From an uncultured virus (IMG/VR IMGVR_UViG_3300035698_026801) (lineage: Duplodnaviria > Heunggongvirae > Uroviricota > Caudoviricetes), in IMG/VR virus record IMGVR_UViG_3300035698_026801: a DNA stretch of 64,000 bases; one strand, 5' to 3'. Positions 22,908 through 49,019 of the stretch are shown one piece after another. The notes below the pieces were generated by a model. It worked only from the letters and a program-made list of their open reading frames with translations. It did not search any database and was not told the origin of the DNA. Position 1 is the stretch's first letter. Every line of letters begins with the position of its first letter. The position numbers and the translations under genes are program-made.

Positions 22908-23213
22908 ATGACGGAAAAAAATAGTAAAAATCTAAAAGAGCGCGATAACATTGTTTATGTTGGTAAAAAAAGTTTGAACGATTACGTAACAGCCGTTATG
23001 ACCCAATTCGGTCACGGAGAAACAGAAGTTCTACTCAAAGCTCGCGGAATTAATATTGTAAAAGCGGTATCAGTATCCCAGGTATTACAAAATAATGTAG
23101 CTATGGGCGTAATTGAAAAGGACGCTAAAACTGGCACAGATATTCTTGAATCTGACACTGGTACGAAGCCATTACGTGTTTCTGTATTAACGATTTACCT
23201 GGAGCGAAAATGA
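22908..23213 (+). CDS. albA: Alba DNA/RNA-binding chromatin protein
   Basis: VYVGKK..NDYVTAV....EVLLKARG.NI.KAV...RVSVLTIYL is the Alba signature. Confidence 0.85.
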   Translation: MTEKNSKNLKERDNIVYVGKKSLNDYVTAVMTQFGHGETEVLLKARGINIVKAVSVSQVLQNNVAMGVIEKDAKTGTDILESDTGTKPLRVSVLTIYLERK

Positions 23214-33271: not shown

Positions 33272-33794
33272 TGGTATTTGGTGTTTTGCAAGGGAGGAAA
33301 GTTAAATGACAAACTTAAAACAAGTTAAAGCACTTTTAGAAGGTGACGAAGCATCAGCCAAAGTTTTAGAAAACGAAGGCTATGTTTTCTTCGGGCACCG
33401 CCTGAATGACCGGATTTATGAAAACGAGCATAATAAAATCGTCGTTTATCGAGACCATGTTTCAATGGTTTACGACGAACCATGGAAGAATGCCAATGTG
33501 CGATTGGATGGTAAAAAATGAATGAAAATCAAGTTATAACTATTTTAATAGTGGCCTTAGTATTATCAACTTTGGGTTATGTTATTATTAATTTTGATCC
33601 GTATAGTCCTATGCCCTTACCAAATAGAAGTATTGTTTTTCAACAGTGTAAAGATGCACTTGTCGAATCTAGTTTAGAGGTAGATCAAAAGCTTGAAGTT
33701 TATCATTCTTTTTTACAAAAGGTGTATTATCCTGATGATAAAGTGCGGTATTTTGAACAAGTAGAGTCTGGTAAAATTAAGGAGGGAGATTAAT

Positions 33795-36976: not shown

Positions 36977-37516
36977 ATGAAAAATATGAGGGAAGAATTA
37001 TCAGAAGACGATAAAAAAAAGTTTAAATTAGATTGTAAAGCCCTAAAAGAGTTGTATTTGAAAGATCATTCTCCGAGATTGCTTGCATATAGAAATGAGT
37101 TGTTATGTAATCCAGATATAAGTAATTCAAAAGACGAATTTGTTTTACATCTTACGTTAGACAATGAAATCTCACCAAAAATGAAAGTTAAGTTAAGTGA
37201 TGAGTTTAAGGGATATTCGTATAAACCCAGTAACGCATCTATTCTGGTCGCAATGAATTTAGATAAGGCAAAATTTCTTTATGATAGTTTAAAATGGTTT
37301 TTTGATAAGGATATTGAAAAGAAAAAAGCAATGTATGAATATTTACAAGGAAAAAAAACAATTATGCAAATTTCACGCGAAATGGATATTAGTGATTCTA
37401 TTCTTCGAAAATGGAGGGAAGAGGAAGGATTTATTTTCGTACCTTGGCCTCATATATCTCATAATGGAGTTTGGATAAAACCGGGTATGATTAAAGACAA
37501 TAAAAATGAAGGCTAA
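36977..37516 (+). CDS. Protein with C-terminal HTH
   Basis: TIMQISREMDISDSILRKW. Confidence 0.6.
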   Translation: MKNMREELSEDDKKKFKLDCKALKELYLKDHSPRLLAYRNELLCNPDISNSKDEFVLHLTLDNEISPKMKVKLSDEFKGYSYKPSNASILVAMNLDKAKFLYDSLKWFFDKDIEKKKAMYEYLQGKKTIMQISREMDISDSILRKWREEEGFIFVPWPHISHNGVWIKPGMIKDNKNEG

Positions 37517-38817: not shown

Positions 38818-39174
38818 ATGAAACAAAGAATTAGATGTCCATGCTGTGACAGCATATTTGAAGTTAAAATTAAGAATATTGTATATTTTTTGGATAAAGA
38901 AATCATTTTGGATAAAAATACAAGAAAGCATAGAGAGAAAAAAAGTGAAGAAATTCAAGAAATATATAATAAAACAGATTTAAGGGATCGCGTAATTATA
39001 AAATGCTTATTGCGTTCTAAATGTCCTTTATCAGTAAATGACATAGCAAAACGCACAACACAAAGTTGGAACACAGTTAAAAAACATTGTTTAAAACTTG
39101 AAGAAATAGGATATCTTAAAACTAAAATAATAAGAAAAGCAGTTTTATGGATTCCAAATTTGGAGGATGATTAA
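38818..39174 (+). CDS. Zinc ribbon plus winged-helix regulator
   Basis: CPCC; SVNDIAKRTTQSWNTVKKHCLKLEEIG. Confidence 0.7.
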   Translation: MKQRIRCPCCDSIFEVKIKNIVYFLDKEIILDKNTRKHREKKSEEIQEIYNKTDLRDRVIIKCLLRSKCPLSVNDIAKRTTQSWNTVKKHCLKLEEIGYLKTKIIRKAVLWIPNLEDD

Positions 39175-39347
39175 GAATGAGTGATGGTTGTGATTTGAAA
39201 ATGACAGAAAAAGAAATTATAGAAAAAATTAAAGATTGGTTAGTTGAACGAACTCTTGAAGCAACTAATAATAATGAATCGAAGTTTGCAGTAATCCGTA
39301 ATGGAACTTTACAGGCTTTTAAAAGAGAGTTTATGAAAGAAGAGTAA

Positions 39348-39441
39348 ACCAGCCGAAACAGTATAATGCTTTCAGGCAGACAAGCAAGGGCTGTGCTAAA
39401 TGTCCTAAGCAAGTGTAAGTCCTGAACCTGCGGCACTTGGT
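39348..39441 (+). ncRNA. BHB-flanked intron-like RNA element 1
   Basis: ACCA-GCCG-AAA-CAG ... CTG-CGGC-ACT-TGGT; inner TTCAGG/CCTGAA stem. Confidence 0.65.
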
Positions 39442-39448
39442 AAGTATT

Positions 39449-39736
39449 ATGGAAACAAACAAAATAATTCACGGCGAATGCCTAGAAGTTCTTAAAACGA
39501 TTCCTGACAATACCTTTGATTCAGTTGTCACAGACCCACCTTATGGCTTATCTGCTGCAAAGAATAGTGGCAAAACTTCAAAAGGTGGATTTATGGGTAG
39601 CTCAGGAACGACAGCGATTGCGTGTCATAAAGAAGGATTTGATTATATTGGAATCGAGCGCGAAGAAGAATACGTTAAGATTGCAAAGGCGCGAATCGCG
39701 GCACAACCTCAACGTTTGGATAAATTTATTAAGTGA
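39449..39736 (+). pseudogene. Internally deleted beta-class N6/N4 DNA methyltransferase
   Basis: TDPPY joined almost directly to FMGSSGTT; central region missing; frame intact. Confidence 0.7.
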
Positions 39737-39841
39737 AGTTAAAAATAAACTTATTTATATTCCGCATACCAATTAAGTTACAAGGAATTCAGAACGCAGG
39801 GGCAATACAATAAGAGCAAGTTACATTGCTCTGGAGTAAAA

Positions 39842-40069
39842 ATGCAAGCAAAAGAACATATAATTACAGGAATAGTCGCTGCTTTAATAGCCACAATTTT
39901 TAACAACCTTCTAGGTGGTTCGTTAATTAATTTCTCATTTTCGACCATTTACGTATTAGTCACTACGGTTGTTATTGGTGTTGGTGTTGGTTTTGCAGTA
40001 CTCTATTTCGTTAATTTACGGAATGAGGAAAAAAATCAGAAAAGTTCAGCTAAACCTAGTAAAAGGTAA
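39842..40069 (+). CDS. Small two-TM membrane protein
   Basis: Hydrophobic; TTTATATT upstream. Confidence 0.6.
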   Translation: MQAKEHIITGIVAALIATIFNNLLGGSLINFSFSTIYVLVTTVVIGVGVGFAVLYFVNLRNEEKNQKSSAKPSKR

Positions 40070-40076
40070 AAAAATA

Positions 40077-41762
40077 ATGAAGAAGTTAAGTTGGATCATG
40101 TTAGTTTGTATGTTTTTAATTCCTTTAGTTTCGGCAATCCCAGACTATAATATTGTTTACGATTTTGATAATTTACCTATTAGTTCTAATCAAAATGTAT
40201 CGTTGGGTTACTTTACAGTGGCAGCATTGAATGAGTCTGTTTCAAATTTGAATATATTTTATTCCGATATTCCATTTAAACTCATTTTTTCTCCACAAAC
40301 CATCACTACATTAACCACAGATCTTGTTCGTGTTAATATTTCCGCAGAAACAACTTCTGCGACAACTGCCGGAAATTATTCGGGAAAGTTGTTTATTTCC
40401 TCAGATTCTGTAGCACAAAAGCAAGTTAATTTGAATATTGAAGTTCTAAAAGATGATTCATTTGTGGTAACTCATTCAGCGTTCATTACCACGTTAGATT
40501 CTGGATTATCTGGAATTTTTGGGAATATTACTATCAAAAACGACGGGAACATAAACCAACTTTTCACGATTTCCGTTGAAGGTACGATTTCTGAGTTAAT
40601 TACAACGGTTGACCAACTTTTAGTTTATAAGGGAACTTCAGATACTTTTTCAATATCATATTTAATTCCAAAAGATCAGGACTTATCAGAATATACTGGT
40701 CAAATAATAATTAATTCTGATCAAAATGAAACCAATCAAACAATTAATACCTCCATCACAATTAGAGATATCATCCCTCCAGAACTTATTTCTGCGAATT
40801 TTTCAGATGTTATGGCAACACAAATTAATGTTTTACAAGTGGAAACTATAGACAATGTTGCAGTTAAAAATGTTACGGCTGAAATTTATTACTTTGTAGA
40901 AGATGGAAATGATACTGCGCGTCATAATTTAAACAATATCACATTTACTAAGGTTTTAGATCGTAATCGATGGGATTATGATTTTGAAGATACAGAAGAT
41001 CTAATGTCATATTATATTGATGTTTATGTGCGCGATGAAGCCAATAATTTAAATATGACCACAAGGCAATTTAAGGTTATTGAATTGGAATCTTTGACTC
41101 ATGACACAGTTATTAAATTCCCTGCAGTAAAATATGGTGATTTTTCACATGTTATTGCGTTTAACATAGCTTATGAAACCTCAGTAAAGGTCTCAATTGA
41201 TTCTATGGAATATAATTACACGTGGGAGTTTGCTATTGAACGCCCAGATGGGAAGAAGAGGTATTTTGAAGACGCAGATGAATTTAAAACGTTTTCAGAT
41301 GTTGGAAATTACACATTAATGGTTAAAGGCGAGAAAGAAGGCGAATTTTATGGATCAATTAAGTTCGAATTAATTGATACACACAAATCTGTTGAGTTAT
41401 TAGAATTTTCTGGGAAGTTTATGAATTGTACGATTCCAAAAGAATTTAAAGATCTGGATTTTTATGGAGGTTCTATTGAGTTAGAGTTGCAAGACCGCGC
41501 AACTTGTGGAAATAATTCTTTTTATAGGTATATTATTGAGTATCCGATTGATAGCTATGTTGAAGGCGAACATAAATATATTGTCTCTTATAAGGGAGAA
41601 CTTGAAAAAGAGCAAAGTCATAGAGAAACCCTTGATCGCAAAGATTCTTCAATCGCAGGTAGAACTGTAGCATTGGTTTTAATGAGTTTGATGTTTATTA
41701 TATTTATTTTGTGGGTTGTTTATGCTATGATGATAAAACCGTACACATATTGGAGGCGTTAA
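40077..41762 (+). CDS. Surface glycoprotein-like protein with Ig-like domains and C-terminal TM
   Basis: Signal peptide; many NxS/T; C-terminal TM. Confidence 0.8.
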   Translation: MKKLSWIMLVCMFLIPLVSAIPDYNIVYDFDNLPISSNQNVSLGYFTVAALNESVSNLNIFYSDIPFKLIFSPQTITTLTTDLVRVNISAETTSATTAGNYSGKLFISSDSVAQKQVNLNIEVLKDDSFVVTHSAFITTLDSGLSGIFGNITIKNDGNINQLFTISVEGTISELITTVDQLLVYKGTSDTFSISYLIPKDQDLSEYTGQIIINSDQNETNQTINTSITIRDIIPPELISANFSDVMATQINVLQVETIDNVAVKNVTAEIYYFVEDGNDTARHNLNNITFTKVLDRNRWDYDFEDTEDLMSYYIDVYVRDEANNLNMTTRQFKVIELESLTHDTVIKFPAVKYGDFSHVIAFNIAYETSVKVSIDSMEYNYTWEFAIERPDGKKRYFEDADEFKTFSDVGNYTLMVKGEKEGEFYGSIKFELIDTHKSVELLEFSGKFMNCTIPKEFKDLDFYGGSIELELQDRATCGNNSFYRYIIEYPIDSYVEGEHKYIVSYKGELEKEQSHRETLDRKDSSIAGRTVALVLMSLMFIIFILWVVYAMMIKPYTYWRR

Positions 41763-41763
41763 A

Positions 41764-42198
41764 ATGCTTAAAGTTCCATTTTATATAAATTTAGCAACAG
41801 GAGAGGTTGGCAGTTATTTAGGAGATAGACCTAGTGATACGGCCAAAGAAATAATTCCAAGATATCGACCTATAAATAAGGTAAGAGGTTATTGGGATTC
41901 CAAAGATCCTATTCCGGATTATGCTAAACACATAATTCAGCCAACTAATTTAACATTGCCTGGAGTTCAGAAAAGTTATGTTGTAATTACAGAAGATTCC
42001 AACGGACAACATCCTTGGTTAGATAAGGTTTTGGCCCTAGACAAAAAAAGTATAGCGAAACTTAAAAAAGAAAATGATAAGTTAGAGCGAGATAACGAGA
42101 AGCTTAGAATGAAGATTAAAGAGTTAGAATCTCAAGAGAGTAAAAAAAGAACATCATTAACACCTTATGGTGGAATACCACCATTGGAGAGGTATTAA
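41764..42198 (+). CDS. Hypothetical protein with C-terminal coiled coil
   Basis: LKKENDKLERDNEKLRMKIKEL. Confidence 0.65.
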   Translation: MLKVPFYINLATGEVGSYLGDRPSDTAKEIIPRYRPINKVRGYWDSKDPIPDYAKHIIQPTNLTLPGVQKSYVVITEDSNGQHPWLDKVLALDKKSIAKLKKENDKLERDNEKLRMKIKELESQESKKRTSLTPYGGIPPLERY

Positions 42199-42199
42199 A

Positions 42200-43273
42200 A
42201 TGCCAATAGAAGATGATAGACAAGAATATACCGTGGCAGATCTTAAATCTGTAATAGAAAGATTAGATAACGAAATAATTACGCATGAAAATTATAGTTC
42301 ATCTTATGATTTTGTTATGGGTCGTAATTCTTTAGCAGAAAGCACCGCAGGACAAAAAACTGAACAAGCAAATGATTTAATTCGTGCAGTTGATGTAATG
42401 GATTCCGAAGAAGATCTTCAGTCACTTAAAGAAACAAGTCCAAGATTAAGAGACTTGGATGCAAAGAAAAATCAATTAATTAAGGTATTGCGTGAACTTT
42501 GTGTGGATCGAGTATTACAAACACAAATGTTAATTACTCAAGCGCACAAGCATAAAAAGGTTTTAGATGGAATCAGAGCTCAAAACATAAGTGCAGAATT
42601 GTTTAAGAATTTTAAAGTTTTTATGTCAGAACAGTATACATCGATTGATACCAGAAACAAAGAAATTTTAGAGTTCTTTAAAGAAATGATGAATGGTAAA
42701 ATGCGCTTTTTAGAGGAAAGAGATCAGAAAACATTTACATTAATGACCGAAGCCTTGTTAGCATTATCTAAATCCTTAAATAAAATTTCACCGGGAAGTG
42801 AAAAACAATTAGAGAGTAAAGTTAAAGAACTTATGAATCCAAATACATTAGATACTTCGTTGCATCAAAAACCCGTTATTCCAGAACCAACAATTAATTC
42901 AAATGAGTCAGTACCACAAAGTAATGTAAATGATTCAGTACCAACAAGTAATTCAAATGATGTAACACCACCATCACCCAATTTAAAGGGTTCTGATAAC
43001 GAAACACAGAAAAGTAGTAGTCCCGCACCAATAACTAATTCAAATGATCTATTACCAGTAATTAAACCAAATTTATCTGAACAGATTCCACAAAATTCAA
43101 CAGATAGTTTAAATTTAACTGAGAATCAAGCCAATGCTTTAAAGTTGATAGATTCTGGAATGGAAACTAAGGCAGAACTTGGAAAAGAATTAGAATTAAA
43201 TAAAGTAACTATTGGAGCGATTGTTTCACAGTTAAAATCTAAAGGATTGGTTGATGGTGATTGGGGCAAATGA
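42200..43273 (+). CDS. Coiled-coil protein with low-complexity linker and C-terminal wHTH
   Basis: LTENQANAL....TKAELGKELELNKVTIGAIVSQLKSKGLV. Confidence 0.7.
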   Translation: MPIEDDRQEYTVADLKSVIERLDNEIITHENYSSSYDFVMGRNSLAESTAGQKTEQANDLIRAVDVMDSEEDLQSLKETSPRLRDLDAKKNQLIKVLRELCVDRVLQTQMLITQAHKHKKVLDGIRAQNISAELFKNFKVFMSEQYTSIDTRNKEILEFFKEMMNGKMRFLEERDQKTFTLMTEALLALSKSLNKISPGSEKQLESKVKELMNPNTLDTSLHQKPVIPEPTINSNESVPQSNVNDSVPTSNSNDVTPPSPNLKGSDNETQKSSSPAPITNSNDLLPVIKPNLSEQIPQNSTDSLNLTENQANALKLIDSGMETKAELGKELELNKVTIGAIVSQLKSKGLVDGDWGK

Positions 43274-44092
43274 AAAGCTCCGCCATAATTATTAAAGGCG
43301 AGTTACAGACCGAAGTTTGTGGATCTATACCCAGTAAAGGCGATCCAAAGATAGTGTATAATGATAATTTGAGTTTTTTACCTTTTAATCCGTTTTATGT
43401 GAGCGAATCTGAAGTAAAGATTCATTTAAAACGAAGTTTTGGAAAAGGATGGTATCAAATAGTAGTATATGATGGTGCATTAGGTCCTAGGAGACCTTTT
43501 GGCACAAAAGGGATAAAGGTGGTTTAAGGTGGCCGAAATTGTAATTGCATTATATGTAACATTAATCCTTATTGGTATTTGGAATATTTTTGGAATATTT
43601 GTTGGAACTATTATTGGAAAAATTGCAGTTAGTGAAGAACGTGGCGGAGTATCCCTTTATTATATTATTGGAACGGCGGGGGTATTTCAATTAATTGGGC
43701 TTTTATTATTCCCATTTTTATTCGGCATAATTGATAAGGTGATTTGAAAATGAAAACGACAAAAATTATAACATATATAATTATTATTTTGTTTTTAGGT
43801 ATTTTAATGTATTTATTTAGGGGTATTTGGTGATTTAAAAATGATAGCATTAGAAACTTTAAAAAAGTTGTTTAACACGGATAAAACTGGAAATACTTAT
43901 TGTTTTTCATTAATATGTTGGACTAACGGACGTTGGAGTATTGTTGTTACTGATGATTGGTATAAATGGACGGATAACGCCACACCAAGATTGGATTATA
44001 CGTATTCCACACCATCAAAAGCTGTTAATGCTTTTTTAGCACATATAAAAAAGCATAACATAAATTTGAAAAGTCTACAAGAAAAAGATTAA

Positions 44093-44131
44093 ACCAGCCG
44101 AAACCAGTTAAGCTTTTCAATAAAAGCTTAA
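44093..44131 (+). repeat. BHB left half-site followed by AAGCTTTT/AAAAGCTT hairpin
   Basis: ACCAGCCGAAACCAG then TAAGCTTTTCAATAAAAGCTTA. Confidence 0.7.
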
Positions 44132-44210
44132 GCAAAACAACTATAGATAGGACTGATAGGATGGATAGGTTTATATATTTTGCAAACAAAGAATAATTAG
44201 GTGAAATAAA

Positions 44211-44558
44211 ATGAATGAATTAAATCAAGTAATGAATGAAGTTTTAACTGAATCTTTCAAAGAGGGAGATGAAAGAGAGAAATTTCATAGGAGAATAACA
44301 AAAGAAGCAGAAGAAGACAAACGGGATTTTTGGTTGGTTAAAAATGGATATGGTCAAATCCAACTATTGCCAGAAGGACATCAGATTATAACACATTTAT
44401 ATTCTAGGAACATAGAGGAATACAAGAGAAAAGGGTATATAAAAGTAGTTCCAAGAAAGTATGTCAAACTTTTGCTTGAAGACAAAAGAGCAGAAAGAAA
44501 TGCAGAGATAAAATATAGAAAAACCGTAAAAGAAGTTTTTCAGAGGATAAAGAAATGA
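44211..44558 (+). CDS. Hypothetical protein
   Basis: AGGTGA SD; TTTATATA upstream. Confidence 0.6.
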   Translation: MNELNQVMNEVLTESFKEGDEREKFHRRITKEAEEDKRDFWLVKNGYGQIQLLPEGHQIITHLYSRNIEEYKRKGYIKVVPRKYVKLLLEDKRAERNAEIKYRKTVKEVFQRIKK

Positions 44559-44668
44559 AGAAAGTTAAAATAGAACTTAGAGAGGATATTGTAATTAAAC
44601 TTCACAATATGAAAGAATTCAAAGAAACATATTCAGATGTTCTGGATCGTGTATTAAAAGGGAAATAA
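44555..44668 (+). CDS. 37-aa RHH/antitoxin-like peptide
   Basis: Manual translation MKKVKIELREDIVIKLHNMKEFKETYSDVLDRVLKGK. Confidence 0.5.
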   Translation: MKKVKIELREDIVIKLHNMKEFKETYSDVLDRVLKGK

Positions 44669-44887
44669 GGCGGCACTTGGTGATTTGAAAATGATAGATT
44701 ATACAAAAGAATTTGGTAAAAAATATAAAATTATTGAAGATGCAATTAAAGAAGCAAAAGTAGAGGAACGAGAGAAGGTTTTAATTAATGTAATGAATGA
44801 GTGTATGCGTAGTGAAAGTGAAACTAATTGTGCGATTTATAGTTGGGCTTGGGAACAAATTAAAGAAATAAAGGTGGTGATTTGAAA

Positions 44888-45523
44888 ATGAATACAGTAG
44901 AATTATTTTCAGGAACTAAAAGTTTTAGCAAAGTCGCTAAAGATTTAGGACATAAAACTTTTACAGTAGATAACAATAAAGATTTAAATCCAGATTTAGT
45001 TCTAGATTTATTATTATTAAGGTATTATTGTCCAGAACATATAGATATTTTATGGACTTCTCCTCCTTGTACTGCATTTAGTGTGGCTGCAATAGGTAAA
45101 AATTGGGATAAAAATACTAGAAAACCAAAGAGTGAAAACGCTTTACTCGGATTAAAACTAATTAATAATACAATTCAAATGATTTCAAAAGAAAATCCAA
45201 CATATTGGTTTATTGAAAATCCAAGAGGCATGCTTAGAAAAGTAATAGATCCTATATTTTTGAAATATGGAATCAAAAATTATAAACGATTTACAATAAC
45301 CTATTGTCAATATGGAGATACTCGAATGAAGCCAACAGACATTTGGACAAATTTTATAGAATGGAATTCAAGACCAATGTGTAAAAATGGAGATTCATGT
45401 CATATTTCTGCTCCAAGAGGATCTCCAACTGGAACTCAGGGGCTTAAAAATGCTAAAGAGCGAGGCGTTATTCCTCCAGCAGTATTCAAAGAAATATTCA
45501 AACAAATAAAACAAAGTGATTAA
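44888..45523 (+). CDS. Short C5-type DNA methyltransferase-like protein
   Basis: ELFSGTKS, TSPPC, IENP, YCQYG...KPTDIW. Confidence 0.8.
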   Translation: MNTVELFSGTKSFSKVAKDLGHKTFTVDNNKDLNPDLVLDLLLLRYYCPEHIDILWTSPPCTAFSVAAIGKNWDKNTRKPKSENALLGLKLINNTIQMISKENPTYWFIENPRGMLRKVIDPIFLKYGIKNYKRFTITYCQYGDTRMKPTDIWTNFIEWNSRPMCKNGDSCHISAPRGSPTGTQGLKNAKERGVIPPAVFKEIFKQIKQSD

Positions 45524-45719
45524 ATGAAGATTGCGGTCAATTGGTGATTTGAAAATGACAGATACGGATGATTTTAAAAATGAATTGATTGAATTAATGA
45601 AAAAGCATAATGTATCATTAGATAGAAACGAACAGTATGATGGAAATGAAGAATTTAGTGGATATTGTTACGATTTTATTGGTCCACATACAAGATTTAA
45701 TATAGAAAATATACTTTAA

Positions 45720-45810
45720 ACCAGCCGAAACCAGTATAAATAATGTGTATGGTAGTGCTACATAATGAAATATCCTGATGTTAGTAGATCAGGTACTGGC
45801 GGCACTTGGT
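45720..45810 (+). ncRNA. BHB-flanked intron-like RNA element 2
   Basis: ACCA-GCCG-AAA-CCAGTA ... TACTGG-CGGC-ACT-TGGT; inner CCTGAT/ATCAGG hairpin. Confidence 0.7.
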
Positions 45811-46247
45811 TAAGCCTTTTAATAAAGGCTTATGCGAAACTAAAAAGGTGATTTGAAAATGAGTATTATAATATGTCCACATTGTGGTAGAGGTAATGGA
45901 ATTACCAATTACTATGGTAAATGCTGTAAATATTGTGGTGGTCTAATTACTTCAGAATCAAAATCACAATTTATAAAGTAAACCAGCCGAAACTAAGCTT
46001 TTTAATAAAAGCTTAAGCAAAAGGAGGTGATAAATATGAGTCAAGATAAAGACCAAATTATTAAGTTATTAAAGCATTGGAATACCGAGAAGAATAAAGA
46101 AGAGATTTTTAGTGCTGTTAAAGAAGAATTATTCGATAGTGAAAATTGTGGAAGAGAATTTTTTGAAATAGAGAAGGATACAATTATTGAAACATTCCAT
46201 GCCACATTAAACGCAATCATCGAAGAAATAGAAAACCATTATAAATA

Positions 46248-46333
46248 ACCAGCCGAAACCAGTATAAATAATGTGTGGCACCCACAGTGCCCTATTTAGC
46301 CTCCACGTCTTCGTGGAGCTGGCGGCACTTGGT
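46248..46333 (+). ncRNA. BHB-flanked intron-like RNA element 3
   Basis: ACCA-GCCG-AAA-CCAG ... CTGG-CGGC-ACT-TGGT; inner GGCAC/GTGCC and CTCCACG/CGTGGAG hairpins. Confidence 0.7.
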
Positions 46334-46800
46334 GATTTGAAAATGAAATTTAATAAAAAAGATTTGGTTTTAATTAATCATACAAGAAAAGGTAAGTTTT
46401 ACGCTTTTGTAGAAAGAGATTTTGATACGATTGAAGAATGGTATCCAATAATTTTAGCTAGTAAAGAAGTTATAGGTATGAATACTGATTGGATAAGAGG
46501 AGAGAGTATTTCTTGTCGGGGATCTCTTTGTAAAATAGAAAAGGTGATTTGAAAATGACAAAAGTAAAAACAGAATTTAGAGAAATAAAAAGAAAAGGAG
46601 AATCTTATGACAAGTGTTTTTATAGATGGTATAAATACGCTTTAGAACTTGAGAATCTATGTATTAAATTAGCTTTTAAATTAGAGGATTCTGTTCAAAG
46701 AGTAACTATGAAACATAAACAAATGTGGATTGAAGCATTAACAGAATCAGAAGGAAATATAGATGAAGCAGAGAAGATTTATAATAAAAAACAAAAGTAA

Positions 46801-46908
46801 ACCAGCCGAAACCAGCAATGATGTGTCAAATTAAACGGAAGTAACATCCTAGGAAAAACACTTTAGTTAAATACTAGGTATTCAACGCCAACGTTGGCGG
46901 CACTTGGT
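46801..46908 (+). ncRNA. BHB-flanked intron-like RNA element 4
   Basis: ACCA-GCCG-AAA-CCAGC ... GTTGG-CGGC-ACT-TGGT (one G-U pair); inner CCTAG/CTAGG. Confidence 0.7.
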
Positions 46909-47048
46909 GATTTGAAAATGAAATTAAAAATTAAGATAGAAGGACAATCTAGAAAACAGGAGCTAGAACAGGGCGCGAAAGTATTGAAAGGCGTGTCTGA
47001 AACGTTAGATCTTATTGAAGAAATGTTGGAAGAAAAAAACAGAAGTAA

Positions 47049-47136
47049 ACCAGCCGAAACCAGACGTGGTATACGAGGATGTTTATTTGATCCGCTCGTT
47101 GAAAAATACGCAGTCCAGATCTGGCGGTTATATGGT
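47049..47136 (+). ncRNA. Relaxed BHB-like element 5 (4-nt 3' bulge)
   Basis: ACCA-GCCG-AAA-CCAGA ... TCTGG-CGGT-TATA-TGGT. Confidence 0.55.
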
Positions 47137-47146
47137 GATTTGAAAA

Positions 47147-47779
47147 ATGAAAAAATCTAGAAAATACATTTTAATTATTTTGATCATACTAGTTTTTGCA
47201 ATTGTTTTGGCATTATGGACTAAAGTTATTCCACCAATTGTGTTAGGAATTGTATTAGGTTATGCGCTTGTTATTGGTAGCATTGTGTTGATTATGAAGT
47301 TTTTGGGCGGTGGACACAAAGATAAAGATAAAGGAAAACGTTGGTCTGATGATTATGAACGAATAAATGAACTTTTATTACGTAAAAGAGGAATGATTGA
47401 ATTATCTATTGGGAGTGGAGACGGCGCACAATTTGGCAAAAGGAATTTTCCAGATCCTCTAACTAAGGAATCTAGAGATTTTCTTGTAGTTGTAGCAAAT
47501 AAAAAGTTAGATGGTGGGCGCGCAAGAGCAATTTATAATATAAAAACAGATGATATTGCAGATTTTAATGATTCTGTGGCATTATTTCGGGCGATTGAGG
47601 CAACAGGGAATTTATTTTATGGATTTAAACCAGATGAAGTTTCTTATGGTCTAGGGGTTACTGCTGAAGATGAACAAAGATATCGGTTAGATCGGGTTTA
47701 TGAAAGACTTGGACCAATTCCAATGATTGATACACCTCCACCAAAGAAGGAGGAAGAAAAGGATGACCCAGACAAGTAA
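47147..47779 (+). CDS. Membrane protein, probable partner of the ATPase
   Basis: Two N-terminal TMs; overlaps the ATPase gene. Confidence 0.7.
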   Translation: MKKSRKYILIILIILVFAIVLALWTKVIPPIVLGIVLGYALVIGSIVLIMKFLGGGHKDKDKGKRWSDDYERINELLLRKRGMIELSIGSGDGAQFGKRNFPDPLTKESRDFLVVVANKKLDGGRARAIYNIKTDDIADFNDSVALFRAIEATGNLFYGFKPDEVSYGLGVTAEDEQRYRLDRVYERLGPIPMIDTPPPKKEEEKDDPDK

Positions 47780-49019
47780 TGGTCGTTCTTACAATTATGG
47801 GTATACTGGTTTAAAAATTAGTCCATACGCATCTATGCGTGGATTATTCTATGAACCCCAAGTTCCAGAAATAGTTTATACTTTGGATCGTATTTTTATT
47901 GGTTGGGATAGATTAACGGATAAAGAAGTGTATATTAAGAATGATAAAGCCCTGAGAATCTTTATTTCTGCTCGAACTGGAGATGGTAAAACGTATTTAA
48001 TGAATGCCATACGTAGCCAAGTTCACGTAGCCGGAGCTTATTGTATATCACCAACAGACGTAAAACCTGATACTTATGCAAACAATAAGCCGATTCAGAA
48101 GTTTTTAGAGAGACTTAGAGAGGGTGAAAAACCACGTGCTGTTCCAACTATCACATATTTGCCGGTTTTTTTAATGAAGGAGTATAAAACAGGTATTCCA
48201 GAGTTTAATCACATTTTTCAATTCTCATATAAAGATGTTTCTGAGCGTGCTTTAGCACAGTTATTAGGCATTGGAGACAAAGGAACAACACAAAAAAATA
48301 TTGTAAGTATGTTACATAATAAAATGAGGAGCGGACAAATTTCCGATTTTAACGATATTTATGATTTTATAAATGAGTTAGAATTACATCCACAAACTAA
48401 AAAATCAATAAATCTAGCAATTGGTAAATTACAAGAAAATCGTGTATTAGGTCATAGATATTATGAGGATGTTATTTTTGCATTAAAAGAAGGGTTTGCA
48501 ATTTCTTTAAATTTATTGTATCATAAGAAATTTGTGGGTAATGGATTTCCAGAATCTTATGTAAATATATTTTGTAGTAAAATTACCGACGCGCTAAATT
48601 CTGGAGAATTAGACAAACGTAATTCAACATTTTTTTTCATTGATGAAGCACACGATTTTTGCCCCGCAGATGTTAATTTATCTAGTAAAGATAAAATTTT
48701 AGAATTAATTAATATGTATCGTGATCGTGGAGTCCGTCTCGTAATGGCTTCTCAATATCCTCAACAAATTCCAAATAAAGGTCCAGATGATATTTTGGGG
48801 CAAATGTCTCATTTCTTTATTTCTAAAACGGCCACTCCTGAAAATAGGAAGTATTTATTAACACAGGCTGATTTATATCGGTTTGGTGATATGCAACGGA
48901 ATAAATGGCCGAAGATTTTTGCCAAAATGAAAAAATATGATTGGTTATTGATAGATGTTAGAGAGAAATCTTATAAAATTGTGAGGCTTGCATCTCCGTT
49001 ATGTGCTCATAAAACCTAA
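47763..49019 (+). CDS. HerA/FtsK-superfamily P-loop ATPase (candidate genome-packaging or translocation motor)
   Basis: Walker A SARTGDGKT; Walker B FFIDEAH; R finger YRDRGV; ASQ. Confidence 0.8.
   Translation: MTQTSNGRSYNYGYTGLKISPYASMRGLFYEPQVPEIVYTLDRIFIGWDRLTDKEVYIKNDKALRIFISARTGDGKTYLMNAIRSQVHVAGAYCISPTDVKPDTYANNKPIQKFLERLREGEKPRAVPTITYLPVFLMKEYKTGIPEFNHIFQFSYKDVSERALAQLLGIGDKGTTQKNIVSMLHNKMRSGQISDFNDIYDFINELELHPQTKKSINLAIGKLQENRVLGHRYYEDVIFALKEGFAISLNLLYHKKFVGNGFPESYVNIFCSKITDALNSGELDKRNSTFFFIDEAHDFCPADVNLSSKDKILELINMYRDRGVRLVMASQYPQQIPNKGPDDILGQMSHFFISKTATPENRKYLLTQADLYRFGDMQRNKWPKIFAKMKKYDWLLIDVREKSYKIVRLASPLCAHKT

Follow-up and report, generated by a model that had tools for sequence, protein, structure and literature searches.

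What might explain why halves of a bulge-helix-bulge (BHB), the structure at which archaeal splicing endonucleases cut RNA, stand without a local partner on either side of protein-coding genes in the DNA of an uncultured virus? The locus lies in IMG/VR record IMGVR_UViG_3300035698_026801, of which the whole 64,000-nt stretch analysed here is called the window. Complete BHB elements occur between its genes, and among them are four half-sites: left arms at 44093 and 45982, a right arm at 44669-44681 and a degenerate right arm at ~45533-45546. A first-pass annotation had placed half-sites at these four positions, all of which we recovered in the sequence, and had proposed either that long-range pairing excises whole genes as circular mRNAs or permits alternative splicing between interchangeable halves, or that the half-sites are scars of cassette shuffling. 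We tentatively favour, at a probability of roughly 0.45, the view that the orphans are solo arms which arose when cassettes were inserted, were deleted or recombined at a conserved intergenic linker element, and that these arms are not maintained as splice sites.

The arms are far more frequent than base composition would predict. The left arm, CCAGCCGAAAC, is present in seven exact copies in the 64 kb, where 100 shuffles average 0.01, and the right arm, GCGGCACTTGGT, in five, where shuffles lead one to expect 0.00; all are on the + strand, in the interval from 39.3 to 47.1 kb. Left and right arms combine into local elements in five cases, and the arms at 44093, 45982, 44669 and 45533 have no partner nearby, as the first-pass annotation had maintained: at these four sites a covariance model of the complete element scores only 9.0-14.1 bits (E 0.31-8.4), and local folds show no BHB. 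Independent low-depth contigs that span the orphan sites show 0 differences (X3 record 21 over 43978-44397, X1 record 6 over 44536-45578 and X2 record 16 over 45917-46331), the sequencing runs X1, X2 and X3 possibly including the source sample of the window. A scan for generic 4-3-4-3 geometry gave 170 matches on the + strand, and 20 shuffles gave 224-304 for both strands together; with so many shuffle matches in AT-rich DNA, that geometry alone is insignificant, and among the matches listed only the GC-rich arm family is conspicuous. No intron-less junction of the kind expected from an already spliced copy was found in the window at <=3 mismatches.

The complete elements are a real structured family. 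Each is laid out as TAA-ACCA-GCCG-AAA followed by one strand of an inner helix, a variable interior of 60-85 nt, the other strand of the inner helix, and CGGC-ACT-TGGT. ACCA pairs with TGGT in the outer helix and GCCG with CGGC in the central helix, and each central-helix strand is followed on its 3' side by a bulge of 3 nt, which puts the two bulges on opposite strands. The local elements, 86-108 nt long and all on the + strand, are found at 39348-39441 (78.2 bits, with an inner helix of 3 bp, CAG/CTG), 45720-45810 (88.7 bits), 46248-46333 (88.7 bits), 46801-46908 (94 bits) and 47049-47136 (68.3 bits, with a variant right arm that has CGGT and a 4-nt bulge). The five window copies score 68-94 bits with the covariance model, which picks out the complete copies alone (68-95 bits), and nothing else in the window exceeds 14.2 bits. 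The BHB is present in the minimum-free-energy (MFE) structure of all six complete elements, the five of the window and one on the metagenome contig L171, and five of the six have 3-4-3 geometry, the sixth having the 4-nt bulge. Across 13 modelled pairs, 98.7% of alignment cells are paired, compared with 19-47% in slid controls. Two-sided changes occur at three pairs, all in the inner helix (CCAGT/ACTGG, CCAGA/TCTGG and CCGA/TCGG); the outer helix, the central helix and both bulges are invariant in the element alignment, and the inner helix and interior vary. Cognate arms pair locally with energies of -14.0 to -18.7 kcal/mol, the weakest element, 39348, reaching -9.8 kcal/mol, and in flanking RNA context the central helix forms with a probability (P) of 0.24-0.99, a range that leaves out element 47049, whose fold is taken from its MFE structure. 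Whole-fold z-scores run from -0.25 to -3.05 and are unremarkable for some elements.

Every element begins at or within the TAA with which the upstream gene terminates. Direct continuation into the linker is seen in 46248, 46801 and 47049, three of the five window copies, and in the copy on L171; between element 45720 and the linker lies a hairpin module (copy 2, 45811-45839), and element 39348 has no linker. As assembled, element 47049-47136 lies within the reading frame of the open reading frame (ORF) 46918-47160, which reads through it entirely. One extra A in the A7 run just before it (47033-47048) would make this ORF stop at the TAA of the element with the ending ...KKQK*, the same as that of the ORF upstream of element 46801; a homopolymer error, a recent frameshift or slippage could each account for the discrepancy. 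The interiors of the elements open with a shared A/T-rich motif, AATGAT or similar to AATAATGTGT (45736-45748, 46264-46276 and 46819-46828, and also in L171), which is followed by two unrelated stem-loops. These interiors might be small excised RNAs; Rfam has no match to them.

How do the orphan arms sit among the other repeated modules? The left arm at 44093-44108 (ACCA-GCCG-AAA-CCAGT, in full ACCAGCCGAAACCAGT; + strand) directly follows the TAA of ORF 43841-44092 and abuts copy 1 of the three copies of the palindromic hairpin module, which consists of TAAGCTTTTCAATAAAAGCTTA plus AGCAAAA (44109-44137, + strand). The left arm at 45982-45993 (ACCAGCCGAAAC, + strand) keeps 12 bases, one of them an inner-helix base; where the rest of its inner-helix part would follow, copy 3 of the hairpin module (45994-46022) stands instead. 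The right arm at 44669-44681 (GG-CGGC-ACT-TGGT, GGCGGCACTTGGT; + strand) runs into the ribosome-binding linker (44679-44693) of ORF 44691-44885. The degenerate right arm at 45533-45546 (GCGGTCAATTGGTG, + strand) lies 9 nt past the TAA of a methylase-like ORF, 44888-45523, and, like the variant arm of 47124, has a T inserted after CGG; no left arm closer to it than the one at 44093 was found.

The 29-nt hairpin modules are 83-97% identical, with a compensatory C-G/T-A change in the stem, and their three contexts differ: one begins after left-arm base 16 (44109), one after left-arm base 12 (45994) and one after a right arm (45811). At 44109-44130, 45811-45832 and 45994-46015 stands TAAGCYTTTNAATAAARGCTTA, a perfect palindrome of 22 nt, three copies where 0.07 would be expected. 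Its AT-rich centre resembles a TATA box, and it might act as promoter, terminator or operator, the 37-aa ORF 44555-44668 being one gene that it could serve. The linker, GGTGATTTGAAAATG, matches 12 sites when up to two mismatches are allowed, eight of them exactly, where 0.52 would be expected. It reads as a ribosome-binding site, a TGA and an ATG; its copies lie within 43738-46920, and several upstream genes terminate in its TGA (...VI*), with or without a preceding right arm.

Other traces in the same region are of the kind that rearrangement would leave. The left arm together with 14 nt of upstream coding sequence is present as a 30-nt duplication at 46786 and 47034 (97% identical), elements 45720 and 46248 are identical over their first 30 nt and divergent thereafter, breakpoints within the arms differ between copies, and some arms are degenerate. 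The alternative offered by the first-pass annotation, that the half-sites are scars of cassette shuffling, therefore fits more of the observations than excision does, but the evidence for it comes from within one genome, and no relative with a reordered array was found. In run X3, a DNA contig of 509 nt connects 46319 with 46895 by way of 31 nt common to two right arms and their linkers and so skips 575 bp, comprising two genes and one element; no variant that lacks 44109-44668 was found across four DNA-contig runs. The joint may be a real deletion variant or an assembly artefact of word size, the 31-nt overlap being what we take to be the word size of the assembler, and we give it little weight. 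The remaining contig joints lie in a methylase gene that is common to many organisms, and were set aside.

We suggest that these observations could be brought together as follows. The conserved element supplies the stop codon of the upstream gene and the ribosome-binding site and ATG of the downstream gene, and its RNA, which folds as a strict 3-4-3 BHB, would be taken out as an intron by the tRNA-splicing endonuclease and ligase of the host. Gene cassettes headed by the palindromic hairpin module would have been inserted beside arms, parts of neighbouring elements would have been lost, and identical arms and linkers would have recombined. The gene units would then have the form leader, gene or genes, TAA and left arm, the joint between two units being a hairpin module or else an interior with a right arm, and solo arms would be the residue of such joins. 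The left arms at 44093 and 45982 would merely close the upstream gene before a hairpin, which at 44093 is followed by a putative promoter, and the right arm at 44669 would persist within the ribosome-binding leader of ORF 44691. Occasional pairing and cutting of 44093 with 44669 may happen without being what keeps them. The direction and the mechanism of these rearrangements are what we infer from the arrangement as it now stands.

Several facts weigh against this account. The three orphan arms that are not degenerate are letter-perfect (16/16, 12/12 and 13/13 bases), and functionless scars should decay unless they are recent. Invariant outer and central helices and bulges, combined with a variable inner helix, are also what would be expected of interchangeable arms that pair with one another. 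Arms 44093 and 44669 are correctly ordered with no arm in between, and in RNA trimmed to 44088-44690 (603 nt) the MFE and centroid structures alike contain their BHB. The contig that joins 46319 to 46895 is a single contig at a depth of 2.5 with a 31-nt overlap and could be an assembly artefact. Finally, no relative with a different cassette order was found, and shuffling is thus deduced from one genome only.

Could the pair at 44093 and 44669 instead bound a functional BHB intron of 574 nt, with cleavage behind 44102 and behind 44676? Ligation of the exons on either side would then give the same mature junction as in the short elements. The enclosed hairpin, promoter region and two ORFs would come out as a circular RNA, or their skipping would be a regulated choice. 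We regard this as rather unlikely. The core is canonical, with exact arms in the proper order: ACCA:TGGT forms an outer helix of 4 bp, GCCG (44097-44100) pairs with CGGC (44671-44674) in a central helix of 4 bp, and the bulges AAA (44101-44103) and ACT (44675-44677) lie on opposite strands, each 3' of its central-helix strand. The two strands pair with -9.9 kcal/mol, equal to the weakest local element (39348), and precedents exist in the ORF-bearing 16S rRNA introns described for Thermoproteales (PMC4496867) and in the 1.7-3 kb circular pre-rRNAs described for Haloferax (PMC7714728). However, GGCGGC directly adjoins the TAA of the 37-aa ORF, which leaves an inner helix of CC/GG, only 2 bp where the six complete elements have 3-7 bp. 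Pairing is also sensitive to context, with a P of 0.91 when the RNA has 5-nt flanks, 0.04 with 100 nt and 0.00 with 300 nt of flank. The bracket furthermore holds the hairpin and a TTTATATA box (44170-44177, + strand), and if that box is a promoter, many transcripts will have the right arm without the left. The excision of genes by long-range pairing that the first-pass annotation envisaged is thus geometrically possible at this pair, but not robust. A broader version, in which the arms are identical because they are interchangeable and the host tRNA-splicing machinery serves combinatorial processing of a polycistronic message, including a 574-nt two-gene circle (44103-44676) and skipping or circularisation of other cassettes, strikes us as distinctly unlikely.

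In a fully combinatorial splicing set, any left arm would pair with any right arm in either order, the orphans being extra donors and acceptors; the products would include messages with skipped exons (45982 pairing with 46323, for instance) and, where a right arm lies upstream of a left arm, gene-bearing exons in circular form. The invariance of outer and central helices and bulges in the six complete elements, with inner helices specific to each element, would suit such a set, non-cognate cross pairings reach -12 to -19.8 kcal/mol and are as stable as cognate ones, and by symmetry the right-then-left order also satisfies BHB geometry. In context, however, the local cognate pairs dominate, with a P of 0.00 for 45982 and 46323, and recent spread or recombination explains the invariant arms equally well. 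Arm 45982, which is without the inner-helix part, pairs with 46323 at P<=0.08 and does not form a 3-4-3 BHB with it, the best duplex having a 6-nt 5' bulge and shifted inner pairs; in the MFE structure it pairs with the downstream ribosome-binding region instead of 46323. We judge a full combinatorial set very improbable. Improbable too, though less so, is the view that the arms are DNA-level signals, namely the ends of small mobile elements or recombinase sites, with a BHB that has no role in RNA and with solo arms that are ordinary solo ends. Its appeal is that the ends are conserved and the interior is variable, that the same ends recur in an otherwise unrelated contig family (L171, L176 and L178), and that solo ends occur. 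Against this, the exact 4-bp helix with two 3-nt bulges is kept in five of six elements, the sixth having a 4-nt bulge, and the changes in the inner helix are compensatory, which argues for selection on pairing that a protein-bound inverted repeat does not need; every copy, moreover, is on the coding strand, with a stop codon immediately on one side and a ribosome-binding site on the other. Among the 62 ORFs scanned with Pfam, no family of integrases or transposases scored above threshold, the only transposase-type signal being a weak HTH_Tnp_1 match at 36977-37516. That the orphan arrangement is a repeat-induced assembly artefact is extremely improbable: exact repetition of arms and linkers extends over as much as 31 nt, and the one contig of run X3 takes another path across two right arms, but separate contigs of X1, X2 and X3 match the window with 0 differences, even if those runs are possibly not independent of its source.

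What, then, lies between the arms at 44093 and 44669? As the first-pass annotation had stated, ORFs 44211-44558 and 44555-44668 are both within the bracket, on the + strand. The TTTATATA box, one of nine exact + strand copies in 64 kb, is situated in the non-coding gap between the hairpin and the ATG, 34 nt upstream of the ATG at 44211, and could be an archaeal promoter. The first ORF encodes a 115-aa protein of a small family, with 10 homologues among 1.84 billion representatives (best E 2e-19), and it is therefore a real gene. The second, of 37 aa, has a start that overlaps the stop of the first and a TAA that abuts the right arm at 44669. Neither has a Pfam family. An AlphaFold model of the 115-aa protein built from a nine-row alignment has a predicted local distance difference test (pLDDT) score of 84, and a single-sequence model is poor (pLDDT 55). 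The better model has no match at E<=0.001 in the PDB or BFVD, and a protein atlas search gave scores of only 0.77, with template-modelling (TM) scores below 0.5. As modelled, the protein is not recognisable as a homing endonuclease, which counts against the intron interpretation of the pair, and no enzyme of the type encoded by rRNA introns was recognised in this cargo. Searches for loci of the 115-aa protein or of two homologues gave no genuine match, one candidate (L208) being a spurious antisense match, and an exact cluster look-up placed the small proteins of the window on only one or two short contigs.

The processing stems of archaeal rRNA operons are long helices, whereas the arms at 44093 and 44669 would be joined by 8-10 bp only. 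In those operons, as described in PMC7714728, arms 1.7-3 kb apart form a BHB and the enclosed pre-16S or pre-23S RNA is circularised. The strict 3-4-3 motif (hBHBh') is reported to be cut by archaeal splicing endonucleases (PMC4090602, PMC3239211), and PMC7714728 names only two BHB introns in archaeal mRNAs, in cbf5 and in the leader of HVO_1309. The intron in the 5' untranslated region of Haloferax volcanii HVO_1309 is likewise a short non-coding BHB-bounded segment in an mRNA leader, and its folding energies, given as -9.6 to -14.9 kcal/mol, fall within the range computed here, although the methods differ (PMC7714728). It is, however, a single 46-nt cellular intron that was cut in vitro and found as a circle (PMC7714728), unlike the many identical-armed viral copies and solo arms described here from sequence alone. 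The cbf5 pre-mRNA intron of Crenarchaeota is also a BHB intron in the transcript of a protein gene, but is described as lying within the coding sequence of a cellular gene, in single copy (PMC2738675). The 16S rRNA introns of Thermoproteales are BHB introns of hundreds of nucleotides that carry protein genes and include partial or remnant introns (PMC4496867); according to that source they encode LAGLIDADG homing endonucleases within an rRNA gene, whereas the pair at 44093 and 44669 brackets ORFs of 115 and 37 aa between protein genes and has a 2-bp inner helix. In split and permuted tRNA genes, BHB halves that lie apart in the genome are united by pairing, but those halves are described as carrying an extra complementary leader and as making tRNA (PMC3239211, PMC3218864), and the solo arms here have no extra complementarity. 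Full-text literature searches found no paper on BHB elements in viral messages.

A different parallel is offered by T4-type phages, in which repeated intergenic regulatory cassettes mediate modular shuffling: short and conserved, they lie between small early genes and serve as crossover points at which cassettes are gained and lost. Those cassettes are promoter and stem-loop modules of bacterial viruses and have no BHB geometry. An integron-type array of attC cassettes was rejected, no integrase family having been found in the 62 scanned ORFs; the ends of the arms do not fit what we take to be the attC end consensus.

A viral array of identical-armed BHB elements with solo arms that bracket genes provides a concrete test of whether host tRNA splicing edits the messages of archaeal viruses, and it shows how elements might turn over through the insertion of cassettes and through recombination at conserved linkers. 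Even as mere scars, the reading that we favour, the solo arms would show where crossovers fall in a modular early-gene region. If the combinatorial or circle interpretation were true, an archaeal virus would have alternative splicing and circular mRNAs.

Is the element confined to this virus? Three metagenome contigs from three samples, L171, L176 and L178, each have one element with the same arms and linker. The copy on L171 (4489-4593, - strand) has the inner helix CCGA/TCGG and an interior unlike those of the window. The 4.9-kb family to which these contigs belong is otherwise unrelated to the window, apart from a stretch of ~66 nt of right arm and linker and a single 54-aa tblastx match (33315-33476), and identical arms in such a setting fit a transferable module. 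A gapped two-arm pattern found nine stretches in the metagenome contigs, of which only L171, L176 and L178 are relatives; L172, L174, L175 and L177 are high-GC chance matches, and L170 and L173 were dropped at 19-22 bits. The same pattern found no stretch in IMG/VR, and its 11 stretches in genome contigs, all in bacterial records, were rejected. Matches to 15-mers of the arms in IMG/VR (87 and 82 stretches) all appear to be chance matches, none of the 169 loci having the linker and one, at 54% GC, having both arms, and a 17-mer scan of IMG/VR for the linker gave 18 stretches, none of them related.

The window is probably part of a virus or virus-like element of an archaeon, to judge from an ORF with an Alba domain (22908-23213, Pfam E 4.5e-13) and from the BHB elements themselves. 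Its G+C content is 30-38%, the coding strand of its genes switches from - to + at ~22 kb, and its DNA is contained in metagenome runs from a salt lake. Most of the 62 scanned ORFs have no Pfam family; those that do include several DNA methylases, an RNase-H-like exonuclease and a HerA/FtsK-type ATPase (47727-49019), which also matches a packaging ATPase or terminase family of PHROGs (1.2e-11). This ATPase had no match in a phage collection or in a search of 5.8 billion proteins, and the only match of the phage collection to the window is a 70-nt methylase stretch of Bacillus phages. ARAGORN found no tRNA in the window, and Rfam gave no match at gathering score in the whole window and none at E<=5 over 39000-47500. 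Directly after element 39348, a 95-aa ORF (39449-39733) has the DPPY and GSSGTT motifs of N6/N4 DNA methylases only ~20 residues apart and resembles a methylase with its middle deleted. At the other end of the size range, a hydrophobic mini-ORF of 27 aa (43750-43833) is flanked by two copies of the linker.

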